Assembly (NCBI GenBank): GCA_030550495.1
Contig: JAUQPG010000004.1
Location: 2,476-66,475 of the forward strand
Direction: 5' to 3'
Length of the DNA: 64,000 bases
From: Candidatus Bipolaricaulota bacterium
GTDB taxonomy: Bacteria > Bipolaricaulota > Bipolaricaulia > RBG-16-55-9 > DRXL01
Under the pieces are notes generated by a model, which had not been told where the DNA came from, did not search any database, and saw only the letters and a program-made list of their open reading frames with translations. This document shows positions 1,324 to 22,600 of the stretch, piece after piece; position 1 is the first letter of the stretch; each line of letters starts with the position of its first letter. The position numbers and the translations under genes are program-made.

Positions 1324-4185
<2,862 letters not shown>

Positions 4186-4198
4186 CAGGTCGCGAGCC

Positions 4199-4245
4199 GT
4201 TGGGCACCTTGTAGAGTCGTGGGGTATAATGAGCGCAGACGGAGG
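4199..4245 (+). promoter_or_regulatory. Putative sigma70-type promoter plus RBS for hicBA
   Basis: TATAAT at 4225-4230, TTGGGC 19 nt upstream, GGAGG at 4241-4245 and ATG at 4257. Confidence 0.35.
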
Positions 4246-4256
4246 AAGGTGACACA

Positions 4257-4463
4257 ATGAAGTTAACTATTGAAGTCGAACAAGAGGAAGATGGGCGCTG
4301 GATTGCAGAAGTGCCTCACCTTCCTGGAGTGCTTGCGTATGGCCAAACCCGTGAAGAAGCCATCGCGCGTGTTCAGGCTTTGTCTCTAAGAGTGCTGGCC
4401 GATCGTCTGGAACATGGAGAAACTGTTCCAGAGATGTTCGACGTCTTCTCGGTAGCTGCATGA
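4257..4463 (+). CDS. hicB: HicB-like antitoxin (short UPF0150/HicB N-domain type)
   Basis: 68 aa: MKLTIEVEQEEDGRWIAEVPHLPGVLAYGQTREEAIARVQALSLRVL. Its stop overlaps the hicA start (ATGA). Confidence 0.7.
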   Translation: MKLTIEVEQEEDGRWIAEVPHLPGVLAYGQTREEAIARVQALSLRVLADRLEHGETVPEMFDVFSVAA

Positions 4464-4675
4464 GCCAATGGCCGACTACAAAGGCAAGAAACGTATTGGC
4501 AGCACTGCTGCGTATCGGATGGAGCATCAAGCGTCATAGAAGTGGTTCACACAGAGTTCTCTCTCGTCCTAATTGGCCCGATTATGTGTTTGCATTTCGA
4601 GATGACGAGGAAATTGGCCCTTGTATGCTGGCACGGATCGCAAAGCATACAGGGCTCAGGCCAGAAGATTTATGA
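4460..4675 (+). CDS. hicA: HicA mRNA-interferase toxin
   Basis: 71 aa: ...KARNVLAALLRIGWSIKRHRSGSHRVL..., the YcfA/HicA fold signature. Confidence 0.8.
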   Translation: MSQWPTTKARNVLAALLRIGWSIKRHRSGSHRVLSRPNWPDYVFAFRDDEEIGPCMLARIAKHTGLRPEDL

Positions 4676-4762
4676 CAATCCTGGACGTGTCTAGCAAACC
4701 ATCGCGACCAACGCTGCTTCCACGCCATGAGCGACCTTAGCAGAATACTGCTTATAGTAGTG

Positions 4763-5638
4763 TCACTTCTCATCCCGCGTCATGAACGCCTTGACCAAGT
4801 CTACTGGGAGCGGGAAGACGATCGTACTCGTGTTGCGCTCCGACGAGATATCTATCAGTGTCTGCAGATAGCGCAGTTGAAGTGACGCAGGGTTCTGCGT
4901 GAGAATCTCGGCAGCCTCGCGGAGCTTGGCAGCCGCCTGGAGCTCGCCCTCAGCGTTGATGATCTTGCTGCGGCGCTCACGTTCTGCTTCGGCTTGACGC
5001 GCGATCGCGCGCTGCATCTCTTGCGGGATTCTCACGTCCTTGATCTCGACGGCCTTCACCTTGATGCCCCAGGGATCTGTCTGCTCGTCGATGATCATCT
5101 GCAGCTTCTTATTGAGCTTCTCGCGCTCAGCCAAGAGCTCATCAAGCTCGACTTGGCCCAGGACGCTGCGCAGCGTTGTCTGCGCGATCTGCGACGTCGC
5201 CTGCAGATAATCTTCGACCTGGGTGATCGCCGCTTCCGGCGACATGACCCTAAAGAAGACAATCGCGTTGACGCTCACCGTGACATTGTCCTTGGTGACG
5301 ACCTCTTGGGGCGGTACGTCGAACGTCACCACACGCAAGTCCACTCTAACGATCTGATCAACGATAGGGATGATGAAGAAGAGCCCCGGGCCTTTGGCCC
5401 CCTGCAGACGTCCTAAACGAAAGACCACGACGCGCTCGTATTCGCGAACGATCTTGATGGCGTTGAGCAAAAAGAGCACGATGATGGCTAGCACGATGAT
5501 GAGCGCAGTTGTCGGCATAGCGAGACCTCCTATGAGATTCAGCAGCGTATCCCACCCCAGTATAGAGACAAAGAGAACAACTAAAAACCCCAAGGTTCCT
5601 AGAACTTCGGTCCACCCTTGACTCGGTCGTTGTCTCAT
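4763..5638 (-). CDS. SPFH/band-7 (stomatin/slipin-like) membrane protein
   Basis: N-terminal TM helices, then an SPFH domain ([10 protein letters not shown]...[13 protein letters not shown]...) and a coiled-coil tail. Start set at ATG 5638 (MRQRPSQGW). The ORF-track start at 5752 is an upstream extension. Confidence 0.8.
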
Positions 5639-5695: not shown

Positions 5696-6502
5696 ATGGC
5701 GAGACAAAAATTGCTCGTCGCCAACTGGAAGATGCACTTCGTGCGCGCCCAAGCTTCAGAGTATCTGAAAGTCTTCACGGAGCGCGTTCGGGGGGTGCAC
5801 AAGACGGAGCTCGTGCTGGCGCCGCCGTTCACGCTCTTAGAAACAGTTGGGCGTGCGCTTGAGGGCACTGCGATCAGATTAGCAGCTCAAGATCTCTTCT
5901 ATGAGCGCGAGGGGGCATTCACAGGGGAGATCTCGCCCATAATGCTGAAAGACTTGGGCTGCTCGTATGTAATCGTGGGGCACTCGGAACGCCGACGGCT
6001 CCTTGGCGAAACAGACGAGCTTATCAATAAAAAGCTTAAAGCCGCGCGCGATGCTGGGCTCGTCCCGATTCTCTGCGTCGGCGAGACGCTCGAAGAGCGT
6101 CGCGCGGGCAAGACCCAAAGGGTGCTCGAAGCGCAGGTTCGCGGGGCGCTTGCAGGGGTCCACCCTCACCCCCAGCCCCTCTCCCCTTCGAGGGAGAGGG
6201 GGGCAGGGGTGAGGGGGCCACATCTTGTGATTGCGTATGAACCGGTGTGGGCCATCGGGACTGGGATCAACGCTGAGCCCGAAGAAGCCGAAGCGAGCGC
6301 ACTGTTTATTCGTGAGCTTTTAGCTCAGCTCTGGAATGCAGAGACTGCGACAACGGTTCGGATTCTCTACGGGGGCAGCGTCAAGCCCGCAAATTTCGAG
6401 GGCTTTTTACGCCACCCCAATATAGACGGGGCACTGGTCGGCGGGGCATCCCTCGACCCAGAAGCGTTCGCGCAGCTGGCCCAGATGGCCGAGAGGGTTT
6501 GA
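5696..6502 (+). CDS. tpiA: Triosephosphate isomerase, with an in-frame palindromic insertion
   Basis: Contains [27 protein letters not shown] and GGASL. At 268 aa it carries about 15 extra residues ([20 protein letters not shown]) relative to typical ~250-aa TpiA. Confidence 0.95.
6163..6215. repeat. GC-rich imperfect palindrome (two perfect 10-bp stems) in frame inside tpiA
   Basis: ccctcacccc..cccctctccc / gggagagggg..ggggtgaggg around a central ttcga. It encodes a loop insertion rather than interrupting the ORF. Confidence 0.7.
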
Positions 6503-6550: not shown

Positions 6551-6859
6551 GTGGAGGATCGTGTGGCAGCGACGCGTTCATACGAAGTGTTATATATCGT
6601 GCGACCGGATTTAGACAAGGCCCAGATCGAGCAGACGATCACGAAGTTTCAGAAGGCCGTCAACGAGAGCGGTGGCCAATTCGTCAAGCTTGACGAGTGG
6701 GGCACACGCTTGCTCGCGTATCAAATCAAGAAGTTCGATAAGGGCTATTACGTCTTGATGGAATTCACGGCGACCCCGGACCAGCTCAGAGAGATCGACG
6801 AGCGTTTTAAGCTCGACGAGAATATATTGCGGTATCAGATCGTGCGCCAAGATGCCTAG
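6551..6859 (+). CDS. rpsF: 30S ribosomal protein S6
   Basis: RSYEVLYIVRPDLD...GYYVLMEF, an S6 signature. GTG start with RBS. Confidence 0.9.
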   Translation: MEDRVAATRSYEVLYIVRPDLDKAQIEQTITKFQKAVNESGGQFVKLDEWGTRLLAYQIKKFDKGYYVLMEFTATPDQLREIDERFKLDENILRYQIVRQDA

Positions 6860-10134: not shown

Positions 10135-13100
10135 GCCCGTTTGTGCATTTGCACACGCACTCTGAGTACAGCTTGCTCGACGCGATGTGTCGCACTGAGC
10201 AATTAGTGCAGAAGTGCGTGGAGCAGAAGATGCCCGCCCTGGCGCTCACTGATCATGGCAATCTCTGCGGGGCTATAGAGTTTTACAAGCACGCTATAGA
10301 ACACGGGATCAAACCTATCATTGGGTGCGAGCTCTACGTTGCGCCCAAGAGCCGTCACACGAAGTCTAAAGAAGACGGGGCAAAGTACTTTCACTTAACC
10401 GTGCTGGCTCGCAACGAGACGGGCTATCGCAATTTAGTGAAGCTGACGAGCTTGGGGTATCTAGAGGGCTTTTATTATAAGCCGCGCGTAGACAAAGAGT
10501 TACTCCAGCGCTATAGTCAAGGGCTGATTATTCTCTCAGGATGTCGCAGCAGCGAGATCTGTCGCTTATTAGGGCAGAATAAATTCGAGAGCGCTCTTGC
10601 AGTAGCTCAAGAACTTCGCGCTATCGTTGGCCCGGAGAATTTCTACATGGAACTGCAAAATCATGGTCTCCCTGAAGACGAAGCCCGCAACGAGCAGCTC
10701 GTGGAGATCGCACGGCGTCTGAATGCTCCCATTGTCGCAACCAACGATGTGCACTATCTTTCTCGCGAGGACCGCGAAGCCCACGAGGTCTTACTGAATA
10801 TTCAGGGCGAGAAGACCCTCGCCGACGAAGATCGCCGCTCTTACGAGGGCGAAGAGTATTACTTCAAGAGCTATGACGAACTCGCCCCGCTCTTCGAGCG
10901 TTGGCCTGAAGCACTCGAGAATACTGTGCGCATAGCCGAGCAGTGTGATCTGAAATTAGACTTTTCTAAAGCCCATCTCCCAACGTTTGCCTTGCCCTCT
11001 GGGTATCAAGACGCCAACGAGTACCTGCGAGCGCTTGCCTATGAGGGGGCCCAAGCTCGCTTCGGCAGGCTCTCCTCAGAGATCAAAGACCGTCTCGAAT
11101 ATGAGCTCTCCGTGATCGCCCAGATGGGATACTCTGGGTACTTTTTGATCGTATGGGACTTCGTGCGGTTCGCGAAGAGTCAAAATATTCCCGTAGGGCC
11201 GGGGCGCGGCTCGGCCGCCGGCAGCTTAGTGTGTTACTGTCTGGGCATCACTGATGTAGATCCCCTCAAGTATGGGCTGATCTTCGAACGCTTTTTGAAC
11301 CCATCGCGTGTCAGCCTCCCTGATATCGATATAGACTTTTGCATGCGCCGCCGCGATGAGGTCATTCGCTACGTTGAGGAGAAGTACGGGCGCGAGCGCG
11401 TCGCTCAGATCGCGACTTTTGACAAGATGAAAGCGCGCAGCGTCGTCCGCGACGTCGCGCGCGTGCTCGGCTTCTCTTACGGCGATGCCGACAAGATCGC
11501 CAAGCTCATCCCCGTTGGGGCGACGCTCGATGCCGCGCTCGAGGGCGTGAGCGAGCTGCGTCGCCGGTACGAGACCGATCCGCACGTGCGCAAGCTCATC
11601 GACGTGGCGCGCAAGCTTGAGGGACTTGCGCGCAATGCTGCCACGCACGCCGCTGGGGTCGTCATCACCCCCGGCGATGTGACTGACTTTGCCCCGCTAT
11701 TGCGCCTGAGCGACGGCTCTGTGCGCACCCAGTACAATATGAAAGATCTCGAGGCCATCGGGCTGCTCAAGATCGATTTTCTCGGGCTGCGCAACTTAAC
11801 TGCTATTGACGATACCCTCAAAGCGATCAAGAAGCTCACCGGCGAAGAGCTCGAGCTGCAGAAGATCCCCTTAGACGACCCCGACGTCTATGCGATGTTA
11901 CAGCAAGGGCGCACGACCGGGGTCTTCCAGCTCGAAGGATCAGGGATTACAGCGTTACTGACAAAGTTAAAGCCCACGGAATTTCGCGATCTTATCGCGA
12001 TCTTGGCGCTCTATCGCCCTGGGCCCTTAGAGAGCGGCATGGCCAACGACTATATCGAGCGCAAGCACGGGCACCAGCCCGTGACCTACCCCCACCCTGA
12101 TCTGGAAGAGGTGCTCAAGGAGACCTATGGGCTGCCCATCTATCAAGATCAGTTATTGTTGATGGCGCGCAGGCTTGCCGGGTTCACTCTTGCCGAAGCT
12201 GATATTCTGCGTGTCGCCGTGGGCAAAAAGAAAAAAGATGTCATGGAGAAGATGCGCACGCGCTTCGTTGAGGGGTGCGTCCAAAACGGTATTGACCGTG
12301 CCAAGGCTGAGGAACTCTTTGCTGATATCGAGAAATTTGCGCGCTATGGCTTTGTCAAAGCGCACTCGACGGCCTATGCGCTCATCTCATATTGGACGGC
12401 GTATCTCAAGGCAAAATACCCTGTGCCCTATATGGCGGCGTTGCTGACGAGCGTCGCTGGCAACACTGAAAAGATCGCTGAATATATCCAAGAGTGTCGT
12501 GAGCTGGGCATCACAGTATTGCCTCCGGATATCAACGAGAGCGATGCGGACTTCACACCCTTGCCTAACAATCACATTCGCTTTGGGCTGGGGGCAATCA
12601 AGAACGTTGGGAGCACAACTGTACAAGCTATTTTAGCGGCGCGGCAGCGGGGCGGGCCGTTCCAAAATTTCGCGGATTTCTGTCGTCGCGTCGCCAGCGA
12701 TGCCCTCAATCGTGAAGTCCTAGAGAGTTTAATTAAATGTGGGGCGTTCGATCGCTTTGGCACGCGCAAGGGATTGCTCTCTCAGGTCGAAGCGGGCCTA
12801 GCTCTTGCTGCTCACGCGCACCAAGAGCGCAAGAGCGGCCAGAAGTCGTTCTTTGATCCCACAGCGCCCTTGCTGAAATCCCCTGATGGTCATGATGAGT
12901 TTGCCCCAGCTGAGCTCTTGCGCTTTGAAAAAGAGCTCTTGGGCCTCTACGTGAGCGGGCATCCCCTCGATCCCATAGAAGAGCGGCTCGCCCTCCTGCG
13001 CACCTGCACTATTCAGCAGCTTAAAGGCCAGCCGGAAGGCAAGGAGATCTCCCTTGGGGGGCGCATTGACTCCGTGCGCGTGATCACGACAAGTAGTGGC

Positions 13101-19609: not shown

Positions 19610-22600
19610 CTAGAGGCGCTCGTCGCGAAGCGCGTACACCTGGAGGAGCCCCGTCTGCAATGCTCGGATCGCTCCTATCAGTGCTTGCGCCCCTTCGAGC
19701 GTCGTCACAGAGGGCACGCGGTGCTTGACGGCCTCAATGCGAATCGCAGCTTCGTCGTGATGCGCGCGCTTGCCCGACGGCGTATTGATAACTAAACAAA
19801 TCTGCCCCTGACGAATCACGTCGACAACGTGGGGATGGCCCTCGCTCACCTTGTTGATAGCACTGACGGCAAGCCCTGCTTGCTGGAGCACGTGAGCCGT
19901 GCCGCGCGTCGCTATGAGAGAGAAGCCCATTTCTGCCAGGGCACGAGCGATGGGCACGATCGCGGATTTGTCGCGATCGTTGACGCTGATGAACGCCGTG
20001 CCCTCAGTAGGGAGCTGGCTCTTGAGATTAAGCTGCGTCTTGGCAAACGCCTCTCCAAGCGTGCGCCCTGATCCCATCACTTCGCCAGTGCTCTTCATCT
20101 CCGGACCTAAGATTGGGTCAGCGAAAAATCTATCGAAGGGGAAGACCGGGGCCTTGACATGAAAACCCTTTACCTTCGGCTCTGCTGTGAATCCTAGCTC
20201 TTTCAGCGTCATGCCCGCCATGACTTTGGCAGCGATCTTCGCGAGGGGGACACCCGTAGCTTTGCTGATGAACGGCACGGTGCGCGACGCGCGCGGATTC
20301 ACTTCCAGTACATACAGCGTATCGTTTTGCACAGCAAACTGTATATTCATTAGCCCGACGACGTTGAGCCGTCGAGCGAGTTTTTTCGTCACAGCGCGCA
20401 CTTCATCTAGAATCTTTTCGCTGAGGGTGAAGGGCGGCAGCACGCAGCAGCTATCTCCCGAATGGATCCCCGCGCGCTCGATGTGCTCTAAAATCCCGCC
20501 GATCACGCAGTCTTCTCCGTCGGCGACGGCATCCACGTCAAGCTCAATCGCGTCTTGGAGGAACTCGTCAATGAGCACAGGCTGCGCGGGTGAGACGCGC
20601 ACGGCCTCTTCAATGTAATGCGCTAGCTCGCTCTTATCGTAGCAGATGGCCATGGCGCGCCCGCCGAGCACATAGCTAGGCCGCACCAGCACTGGGAATC
20701 CAAGATCTTCAGCAACTCGAAGGGCTTCGTCGGCTGAGAACGCGAGGCCACTGCGCGGACGCTTCGCGCCGAGTTCATCCAAGATCAGATTGAACTTTTC
20801 ACGGTCTTCAGCCAAGTCAATATTTTCAGGGCTGGTGCCCAAGATGGGCACGCCGTGCGCCTTCAGAGCGAGCGCCAAGTTCAACGGAGCCTGTCCGCCG
20901 AACTGCACGATTACACCGTTGGGCTCCTCGATCTCAATGATATTTAAGACGTCCTCGAGCGTGAGCGGCTCAAAATAGAGCTTATCTGAAGTATCGTAAT
21001 CTGTTGAGACCGTCTCCGGGTTGCAGTTGATCATGATGACTTCATAGCCCAGCTCGCGCAGGGCGAACGCCGCGTGACAGCAGCAATAATCGAATTCGAT
21101 CCCTTGGCCGATTCGATATGGGCCACCGCCAAGGACGATCACTTTCTTTCTCGTCGTTGGAGCCGCTTCGCACTCGTCGGCTTCGTAGGTCGAGTAGAGA
21201 TAGGGCGTCTGAGCTTCAAACTCGGCTGCACATGTGTCGACTTTCTTGTAGACCGGGTAAATCTTAAATTCTCGACGCTTCGCGCGCACGACCGACTCGG
21301 AAGTTCCCCATATCTTCGCTAGGACGGCGTCGGAGAAGCCGAAGCGCTTGGCTTGGCAAAGCAGCTCCCTAGAGACGCTCTCAAAATCATGGGTGCGCAG
21401 TTTCTTCTCGAGATGCGCGATCTCTTCGAGCTGGGCGAGAAACCACGGGTCTATGCCGGTCCAGCGGGCTAGCTCCTCGACCGAGATCCCTGACTGCAAC
21501 GCGCGATAGAGATAGAAGACTCTCTGAGGATTAGGGCGCTCGAGATAGTCACGGATCAGCTCAGGCGAAAGGGGAAGCTCGACGTCCCCGCCCAGGCCCA
21601 ACCGTCCGATCTCCAACGAGCGAATCGCTTTCTGGAGGGCTTCTTTGAACGTGCGCCCCAGGGCCATCACTTCGCCCACGGAGCGCATCTGCGTCGTGAG
21701 CGTCGTGTCAGTTTCTGGGAATTTCTCAAAGTTCCATCGAGGAACCTTGACGACGACGTAGTCTATCGTCGGCTCGAAGCTCGCCGGAGTCTTTTGAGTG
21801 ATATCGTTGGGCAGCTCGTCGAGGGTGTAGCCCACCGCGAGCTTCGCGGCAATCTTCGCGATGGGGAAGCCTGTCGCTTTAGAGGCCAGAGCCGAGCTGC
21901 GGCTGACACGTGGGTTCATCTCGATGACGAGCATCTCTCCGTCTTTAGGGTTCACGGCAAACTGAATATTGCTTCCCCCGGTCTCGACCCCAACAGCACG
22001 AATTACTCTGATGGCCCAGTCACGCATCTGTTGATACTCTCTGTCAGAGAGCGTCTGCGCTGGCGCGACCGTGATCGAATCTCCTGTGTGGACGCCCATG
22101 GGATCGAAGTTTTCGATAGAACATATAATGACGACGTTGTCGTTGCGGTCGCGCATCACCTCGAGCTCAAACTCTTTCCAACCGATCACGGACTCTTCGA
22201 GCAGGACTTCATGCACAGGGCTTATCTCGAGTCCGTGCTGCGCGACAGCGCGCAGCTCTTCTTCCGTGTGGGCGACGCCGCTGCCCTCTCCTCCCAGCGT
22301 GAACGACGGGCGCACTAAGATGGGATAGCGCAACTTCTGCGACAGAGTGAGAGCTTCGTCGAGAGAGCGCGCAAGGCCCCCGCGAGGCACGGGCAGCCCC
22401 GCGCGCTCCATCGTCTTCTGAAAAAGCAATCTGTCTTCAGCGATCTCGATGGCACGCTGCGACGCGCCGATCAGCTCAATGCTGTAGCGTTCTAAAACTC
22501 GTGAGCGAGCCAACGCGACAGCGAGATTGAGTGCCGTCTGGCCGCCCACGGTGGGCAAGAGCGCGTCGGGGCGCTCGCGCGCGATAATTTTTTCTAGAAT

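Follow-up and report, generated by a model that had tools for sequence, protein, structure and literature searches.

The window analysed here, a 64-kb stretch of DNA, carries on its plus strand an intact gene for triosephosphate isomerase (tpiA, positions 5696–6502), and a GC-rich 53-nt palindrome lies inside this gene at positions 6163–6215. The source names of the closest homologues place the organism in Candidatus Bipolaricaulota (Acetothermia). The gene product, TpiA, has 268 residues and is identified by its PF00121 homologues, the best of which is 100% identical. As the first-pass annotation had stated, the palindrome is contained wholly within the open reading frame (ORF) and keeps the reading frame. 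It is nested, and reads CCCTCACCCC-CAG-CCCCTCTCCC-CTTCGA-GGGAGAGGGG-GGCA-GGGGTGAGGG on the plus strand. The outer arms, CCCTCACCCC (6163–6172) and GGGGTGAGGG (6206–6215), and the inner arms, CCCCTCTCCC (6176–6185) and GGGAGAGGGG (6192–6201), each pair over 10 bp with perfect complementarity in the repeat-finder output, so the two perfect stems described earlier are borne out. The central loop, given earlier as ttcga, is the 6-nt CTTCGA (6186–6191), which differs among copies, and the spacers between the arms are asymmetric (CAG versus GGCA). Repeat finding, folding and block comparison resolve the palindrome into the blocks CCCTCACCC, CCCTCTCCC, GGGAGAGGG, and GGGTGAGGG, in the four-block arrangement C'-C-G-G'. 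The outer right arm, together with positions 6177–6200, gives the C-G-G "triplex motif" arrangement of the E. coli repeat TMECO. Twenty codons, H156–P175 (6161–6220), derive from the palindrome and its immediate flanks and form an extra loop between helix α5 and strand β6, as seen from the translation and from the gap against orthologues with an empty loop and against the Thermotoga maritima enzyme (PDB 1b9b).

The palindrome is predicted to fold strongly at both the RNA and the DNA level. The RNA of positions 6150–6230 folds at -56.6 kcal/mol, compared with a mean of -40.1 kcal/mol for shuffled sequences (z = -4.5), and none of 200 shuffles is as stable. The DNA of either strand forms a hairpin of about -25 kcal/mol (z = -4.4 and -4.7). 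The half-pattern of the palindrome is expected 0.04 times in 64 kb and is observed once. In agreement with the first-pass annotation, no second copy is found in the window with relaxed block patterns and a peptide-signature search; related genomes carry copies at other loci. Three ORF tails flagged by the same search are chance matches with no palindrome in the DNA. No Rfam family matches the palindrome, and a permissive E-value gives only far-sub-threshold look-alikes of eukaryotic microRNA precursors, which are generic hairpin matches. Scans for terminators and promoters detect no terminator-like or promoter site at the palindrome.

To place the insert in an evolutionary context, we align 45 TpiA sequences. 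Twenty-seven relatives, 53–85% identical to the window protein, have an empty loop of 7–10 residues (..GLALSEDLVI..). The segment from VLExQ to AYEPVW spans 26–29 residues in these relatives (..GALAGLALSENLVI..) and 43 in the window protein, so that the net gain is 16 residues (43 versus 27) rather than the 13–15 estimated earlier. At the DNA level, about 62 nt stand in place of about 14 nt of ancestral loop codons, a net addition of 48 nt. The close orthologues thus lack the insert, consistent with the earlier proposal of a lineage-specific insertion in the loop just before the conserved strand. P0008, the nearest neighbour of the window protein in a neighbour-joining tree, reads GAA AGG CTC ACG CTC TCA GAA AAT at the site. 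The empty site of close relatives folds at only -6.8 kcal/mol (z = -1.6).

Sixteen further close relatives have extra residues at the same loop, and these differ from one another. The inserted peptides include HTPSPPSPLPSEGEGRKGMRG, EGLMLFAPSPLAPLPSEGEGSRGEG, and a 52-residue double version, and a distinct type, PDFVWTVRLRQPPAGEDEAHAQR, occurs in single and doubled form. DNA of relatives was retrieved by exact-protein look-ups, comprising nine inserted-loop loci and several empty-site loci; a metagenome scan with TpiA gave few close relatives. Every insert of the window's type (type 1) for which DNA was fetched has a nested hairpin with the same four-block design, truncated in L088 and duplicated, at 1.5–2 copies in length, in L093. 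Translation of the type-1 DNA follows the frame CCT CAC CCC (PHP) in the window but CCC TCA CCC (PSP) in L086, L089, L091, and L093, and one of the resulting peptides is PSPLAPLPSEGEG... Because the same DNA is read in two frames, no insert peptide is conserved. The third frame contains a TGA stop within GGGGTGAGGG.

The tpiA loops of L094 and L095 contain an unrelated palindrome (type 2), CCAGACTTCGTCTGG...TTCGCCAGCC-TCC-GGCTGGCGAA. It too is read in two frames, as PDFVWTVRL in P0019 and as QTSSGPYAFAS in P0016. The type-2 palindrome consists of CCAGAC..GTCTGG with an inner GCCGCCGCAGGCGGC or CGCCAGCC..GGCTGGCG hairpin, and occurs singly or doubled in the tpiA loops of L095 (about 10451–10551) and L094 (about 10448–10626). 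It is also present outside genes, in the rpsR–GTPase spacer of L091 (4141–4212). Two tpiA gene calls of type-2 lineages, P0114 (184 residues) and P0118 (182 residues), are cut short by a frameshift that falls in the palindromic insert or directly behind it (..AGEDERPTRSVACDRL*); this reflects either genuinely disrupted alleles or indel errors induced by the hairpin.

The boundaries of the inserts fall into at least four junction classes (GAL|HTPSPPS, AGV|HPHPQ, EGLMLF|APSPL, and GAL|LAPSPL). In P0003, P0006, P0007, P0011, and P0023 the junction follows GAL, and the ancestral SLELSED is kept downstream. In the window protein it follows AGV, and ALSEN is lost. In P0005 it follows EGLMLF, and in P0002 and P0004 it follows GAL or AGLR. 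When the loop is masked, inserted and empty sequences interleave in the neighbour-joining tree, and neither the type-1 sequences nor all inserted sequences together are monophyletic in any of 200 bootstraps. Sister pairs of one inserted and one empty sequence are supported at 85% (P0023/P0021), 71% (P0006/P0030), and 55% (window/P0008). Since empty loops retain ancestral residues that are lost in several inserted alleles, independent gains, possibly aided by recombination, would fit better than a single gain followed by many precise losses. The α5–β6 loop of TpiA is a permissive insertion hotspot in this Bipolaricaulota clade, used by two palindrome families.

The insert is positioned away from the active site. 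In TIM barrels, the α-to-β loops lie on the face opposite the catalytic β-to-α loops. The catalytic residues K12, H96, and E182 of the window TpiA are conserved and occupy invariant columns of the alignment. The closest relative in the Protein Data Bank is the T. maritima enzyme (1b9b, E = 1e-75), and the sequence alignment of the two has a 14-residue gap at the insert. An AlphaFold2 model built from the 45-sequence alignment is a confident TIM barrel, with a mean predicted local distance difference test (pLDDT) score of 90.9 and a predicted template modelling score of 0.90. Superimposed on 1b9b with Foldseek, it gives a target-normalised template modelling score of 0.96 and a root-mean-square deviation of 1.7 Å. 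Residues 153–177 are modelled as coil between α5 (residues 140–152) and β6 (residues 178–181), and the mean pLDDT of insert residues 161–170 is 48. Mapping the loop onto the barrel, a check proposed with the first-pass annotation, thus puts it in a low-confidence coil on the non-catalytic face. The insert should therefore be a disordered surface loop that likely does little harm, because it is coil in the model and on the opposite face, and because the catalytic residues are kept.

The blocks of the palindrome correspond to a known repeat family. The family was identified by a full-text literature search for the blocks and by direct block comparison; BLAST of the palindrome against E. coli genomes returns two weak partial matches only (E = 0.5 and 2) and identifies no family. 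All three 9-nt blocks of positions 6177–6215 are identical, and in the same order, to those of E. coli TMECO, for example CCCTCTCCC-TTCCA-GGGAGAGGG-TCG-GGGTGAGGG. E. coli K-12 has 23 TMECO copies, including CCCTCTCCCTTCCAGGGAGAGGGTCGGGGTGAGGGT, which had earlier been named BoxC or potential intrastrand triplex (PIT) elements, and the motif is present in more than 260 genomes, notably of Enterobacteria and Cyanobacteria (Holder et al., NAR 2015, PMC4666352). The E. coli TMECO sequence forms an intrastrand purine-motif triplex as DNA, by circular dichroism and nuclear magnetic resonance (PMC4666352). The ITxF criteria of that study define C-G-G blocks with stems of 6–15 nt, at most one mismatch, and loops of 1–6 nt (PMC4666352). 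The window palindrome has CCCTCTCCC at 6177–6185, a 6-nt loop (CTTCGA), GGGAGAGGG at 6192–6200, a 5-nt loop (GGGCA), and GGGGTGAGGG at 6206–6215, which places it within these bounds. Earlier descriptions of the family are reportedly those of Bachellier in the 1990s and of Hoyne and Maher in 2000.

A scan of one genome per species with the pattern CCCTCACCCC..CCCTCTCCC..GGGAGAGGG matches at least 120 stretches. Among the matches listed are Proteobacteria, Chloroflexi, Planctomycetes, Verrucomicrobia, Acidobacteria, and Bipolaricaulota, with Pseudomonas, Xanthomonas, Variovorax, Rhizobiales, Myxococcales, and one Bipolaricaulota metagenome-assembled genome (MAG) represented. The window element and the BoxC/PIT/TM repeats share the 9-nt blocks CCCTCTCCC, GGGAGAGGG, and GGGTGAGGG, the C-G-G order, and loops of 5–6 nt. 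Both are GC-rich hairpins, and both are tied to local sequence variability between close relatives. Dispersal in multiple copies is seen for the family in many phyla and for the window's type in related Bipolaricaulota contigs, which have several loci each; the 64 kb of the window has one. The TMECO copies of K-12 are always intergenic, have no tie to known mobile elements, and are linked with local genomic instability (PMC4666352). Unlike those 23 intergenic copies, the window copy lies within an essential gene and is translated; intergenic location is a descriptive property from one species. The Bipolaricaulota unit also differs from the E. coli motif in being a compact full palindrome of four blocks, C'-C-G-G', of 53–55 nt; therefore, the motif is present on both strands. 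Moreover, Bipolaricaulota is a phylum outside those discussed for the family. Judged by its blocks, the window palindrome is a BoxC/PIT/TM-family member in an unusual place.

Copies of 53–55 nt with the same four blocks are present at other loci of Bipolaricaulota relatives, and the copy in L135, a related MAG, is nearly identical to that of the window. The four-block unit and a 46-nt subfamily are found between genes, at gene 3' ends, and within genes. In uvrA and pheT the palindromes run over the stop codon, and in one further gene they overlap the 3' end, which lengthens the ORFs by short Pro/Ser/Gly/Arg tails. These 3'-end palindromes are in L091 (1285–1330), L094 (9005–9050 and about 20270–20304), L095 (8992–9053), and L010 (13985–14037). 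In Enterobacter sp. 638, 100 palindromes of the form CCCTCTCCCxx(x)GGGAGAGGG are reported at gene 3' ends (PMC2869309). The UvrA of L089 (uvrA 2276–5272) has a 45-residue in-frame insert (about 3000–3130) made of two palindromic elements (..TPSPFPEGKGQS..SSPSPFRGGDRGE..), which is absent from five relatives, including the UvrA of the window. No target-site duplication or shared flanks are detected around 12 palindrome copies.

We examine the 141 matches in the 120 genome loci listed for long ORFs that span the palindrome and check six such ORFs with Pfam. In all six, domains of the host protein lie on both sides of the palindrome. The hosts are Mfd (L099), LigA (L154), a YgiQ-type radical SAM protein (L189), an ABC transporter (L102), MetRS (L097), and PriA (L213). 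In-frame insertion is thus a general habit of the BoxC/PIT/TM family.

The first-pass annotation had compared the palindrome with the Rickettsia palindromic elements (RPEs). The comparison holds for behaviour: like the RPEs, the window-type element is a palindromic repeat inserted in frame into unrelated housekeeping genes, at permissive sites (TpiA, the UvrA of L089, Mfd, LigA, YgiQ, the ABC transporter, MetRS, and PriA), where it encodes a fold-compatible surface peptide, and it is presumed selfish. It does not hold for family. RPEs are about 150 bp in length and form Rickettsia-specific families (PMC10969869), whereas the window element is 53 nt; the two are set apart here by description. 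RPEs are AT-rich, restricted to Rickettsia, and conserved in peptide within each family, whereas the window element is GC-rich, crosses phyla, and is read in two frames with no conserved peptide. The original description of RPEs is said to be that of Ogata et al. (2000). Because its blocks match E. coli and many phyla, the palindrome is called a BoxC/PIT/TM member and not an RPE, and the in-frame insertion that it shares with RPEs is a common behaviour rather than a sign of common ancestry. The earlier idea of a selfish in-frame mini-element is therefore right in kind, with the family corrected. Repetitive extragenic palindromic (REP) sequences and REPINs with their REP-associated tyrosine transposases (RAYTs), miniature transposable elements with inverted repeats (MITEs), and the window element are all short, non-autonomous, hairpin-forming, and dispersed. 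A MITE assignment is disfavoured, as terminal inverted repeats with a flanking target-site duplication are not seen, the flanks of the 12 copies show no duplicated target, and about 14 nt of the tpiA target are replaced.

Taken together, the palindrome is most probably a BoxC/PIT/TM-family repeat that is tolerated as a disordered α5–β6 loop of TpiA, a loop targeted repeatedly in this clade by two palindrome families. A copy entered the α5–β6 loop codons of tpiA in this Bipolaricaulota lineage, probably by a copy-and-paste or a recombination-repair route, replacing about 14 nt of ancestral loop sequence and adding 48 nt net. It persisted since its length leaves the reading frame intact and translation runs through one of the two frames of the element that lack a stop, and the site is a disordered surface loop opposite the active site. 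The tpiA insert would have no dedicated function and be a passenger, selfish or neutral, at a place that tolerates it. The empty site of L216 contains a short CTCAC..CTCTC similar to the left half of the palindrome, and on this very short match one may speculate about a microhomology route. In other bacteria, the insertion route may be tied to nuclease-gene cassettes of the DUF559 family that are bracketed by the same repeats.

Several observations weigh against this explanation. No transposase, DUF559 gene, or target-site duplication is found near the insert, and the insertion mechanism is for that reason unproven. The window has a single copy in 64 kb, and the multi-copy status of the repeat in this organism is drawn from its relatives. 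The tree is built from a single protein and is weakly resolved, and recombination between lineages, instead of independent insertion, could be behind part of the patchy distribution. Finally, the persistence of the allele, whose exact protein is encoded on 14 contigs, and the stability of the mRNA hairpin leave room for an effect on translation or mRNA stability.

The DUF559 genes (YcjD-type, Vsr-like PD-(D/E)XK nucleases) provide a candidate source of mobility. In MetRS of L097 and PriA of L213, a DUF559 domain (E = 3e-30 and 4e-37) is enclosed by two inverted palindrome copies, with the entire cassette in frame with the host protein, and MetRS of L110 has the same arrangement as L097 by sequence and by a DUF559 profile built here. 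A search with this profile detects five DUF559 domains in 835 kb of palindrome-match loci. Each of the five has a palindrome no more than 160 nt away; such 160-nt windows cover 5.9% of the sequence (p about 7e-7). The layout is [C-G-G]-DUF559-[C-C-G] in L097 (cassette at 1307–1815), L110 (2111–2649), L132 (5594–6026), and L107 (899–1468), independent of gene direction, and the mirror image, [C-C-G]-DUF559-[C-G-G], in L213 (2407–2839). An independently fetched locus, L219, has the layout [C-G..G]-DUF559-[C-C-G] (1379–1881). In E. coli, the DUF559 gene examined, ycjD, is followed at 168 nt downstream by a BoxC element, and a hairpin spans its stop codon (NC_000913 1351204–1351760, corresponding to L218 1706–2261). 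A database search with a DUF559 core free of palindrome-encoded residues returns 120 mostly stand-alone proteins. Palindrome-type C-terminal peptides (..HPHLTSPVEGEE, ..TPSPSPKGEGS, ..PHPSPLPTGERG) occur in 44 of these 120, compared with none of 120 TpiA homologues. The physical association of DUF559 genes with BoxC-type palindromes is thus well supported.

The possible relation of the repeats to DUF559 genes is analogous to that of REPs to the RAYT genes that they flank. Unlike the REP/RAYT system, in which the gene encodes a Y1 HUH enzyme related to those of IS200/IS605, the gene flanked by BoxC-type repeats encodes a PD-(D/E)XK Vsr-like DUF559 nuclease. We know of no transposase for BoxC/PIT/TM repeats or for the Bipolaricaulota element. 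The association points to DUF559 cassettes as the origin of the repeats but falls short of proof. Tentatively, and with somewhat less than even probability, BoxC/PIT/TM palindromes may be hairpin termini or cargo-less derivatives of a selfish DUF559 cassette rather than structural DNA that stands by itself; recombination triggered by the nuclease may disperse both the cassette and solo hairpins, which could come to rest in frame in conserved genes, and the tpiA insert may be one such solo remnant. Were the two hairpins of an L213-type cassette to recombine, the product would be precisely the four-block solo palindrome found in tpiA; were an L097-type cassette to lose only its gene, pairs of the "tandem inverted TMECO" kind described in E. 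coli would remain. The window lacks a DUF559 gene, and none is found in some 250 kb of Bipolaricaulota loci; for the organism of the window the link is a lead, not a finding. Our literature search finds no paper that links DUF559 or YcjD to BoxC/PIT/TM repeats, so within the literature searched the association is previously unreported. If the link is causal, it would explain, in a way open to test, where the repeats come from and how they move, for a family that has puzzled biologists for about 30 years.

An RNA-level role is the best-surviving alternative to a tolerated repeat, and we consider it unlikely. The hairpin could be kept in the tpiA message to pause ribosomes between the first five and the last three β-α units during folding, as the first-pass annotation had suggested in outline, or to protect against RNases. 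The predicted mRNA fold, checked as that annotation had proposed, is indeed very stable, and the hairpin falls at the α5/β6 structural boundary. Inserted relatives also have strong hairpins at this loop, and the G-rich half fits a G-quadruplex pattern. However, the closest relatives do without a hairpin at the weakly folding empty site, and lineages differ in whether, where, in which frame and in how many copies a palindrome occurs, and in the family to which it belongs. The same repeat also occurs between genes, at gene ends, and in unrelated proteins, and it has neither an Rfam match nor a terminator-like site. In addition, PIT elements tested in vivo have no promoter, terminator, or polymerase effects, as summarised in PMC4666352. 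A regulatory or ribosome-pausing role is therefore disfavoured.

A protein-level adaptation, in which a Pro/Gly/Arg-rich loop serves thermostability or partner binding and the palindromy is incidental, is less probable still and is essentially excluded: the gene is intact and the identical allele is present on 14 contigs from several samples, but the peptide varies, with one and the same DNA translated in either of two frames depending on the lineage, the DNA blocks are kept across phyla in non-coding DNA as well, the loop is predicted to be disordered, and 27 relatives lack it. Least probable of all, and likewise essentially excluded, is a sequencing or assembly artefact or a de novo local template-switch mutation outside any repeat family; such hairpins do disturb assemblers, but the palindrome DNA is identical at all five loci read, each from a different sample and together from three sources (JGI, ENA, and Logan), so that it does not stem from assembly, three of its blocks are identical to a family found in many phyla, and L135 has a near-identical copy at another locus. 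The disturbance is visible in the metagenome contig L011, 99% identical to the window tpiA, which stops at the palindrome and ends in a fold-back copy of the left flank (10468–10534, ..GGGTGAGGGTGGACCCCTGCAAGC); the hairpin produced this false end during assembly.

The habit of palindromic repeats to settle in frame in essential genes, familiar above all from Rickettsia, thus extends to the far wider BoxC/PIT/TM family, and is seen in an uncultured phylum that branches deeply as well as in several others. One TIM-barrel loop takes two or more repeat families, each of them in either of two frames and once or doubled, a natural tolerance experiment of use in protein engineering. For annotation, the hairpins are a warning, as they break contigs and yield frameshifted gene calls and spurious C-terminal tails.

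The surroundings of tpiA vary among the related loci. Upstream, a small ORF at 4460–4675 on the plus strand, between uvrA and a Band_7 gene, encodes a product (MSQWPTTKARNVLAALLRIGWSIKRHRSGSHRVL..) that resembles a HicA-type toxin. The syntenic spot has HicB/HicA Pfam matches in L095 and ParE matches in L089 and L217, and this intergenic slot seems to gather toxin–antitoxin genes. Downstream of tpiA, from position 6551 of the window onward, the gene order rpsF-ssb-rpsR is found in the window, L089, L091, and L095. A convergent plsY-like gene follows tpiA in L216 (8822), L217 (9994), L093, and L094 (10884), and a HEPN/nucleotidyltransferase pair lies between tpiA and rpsF in L086.

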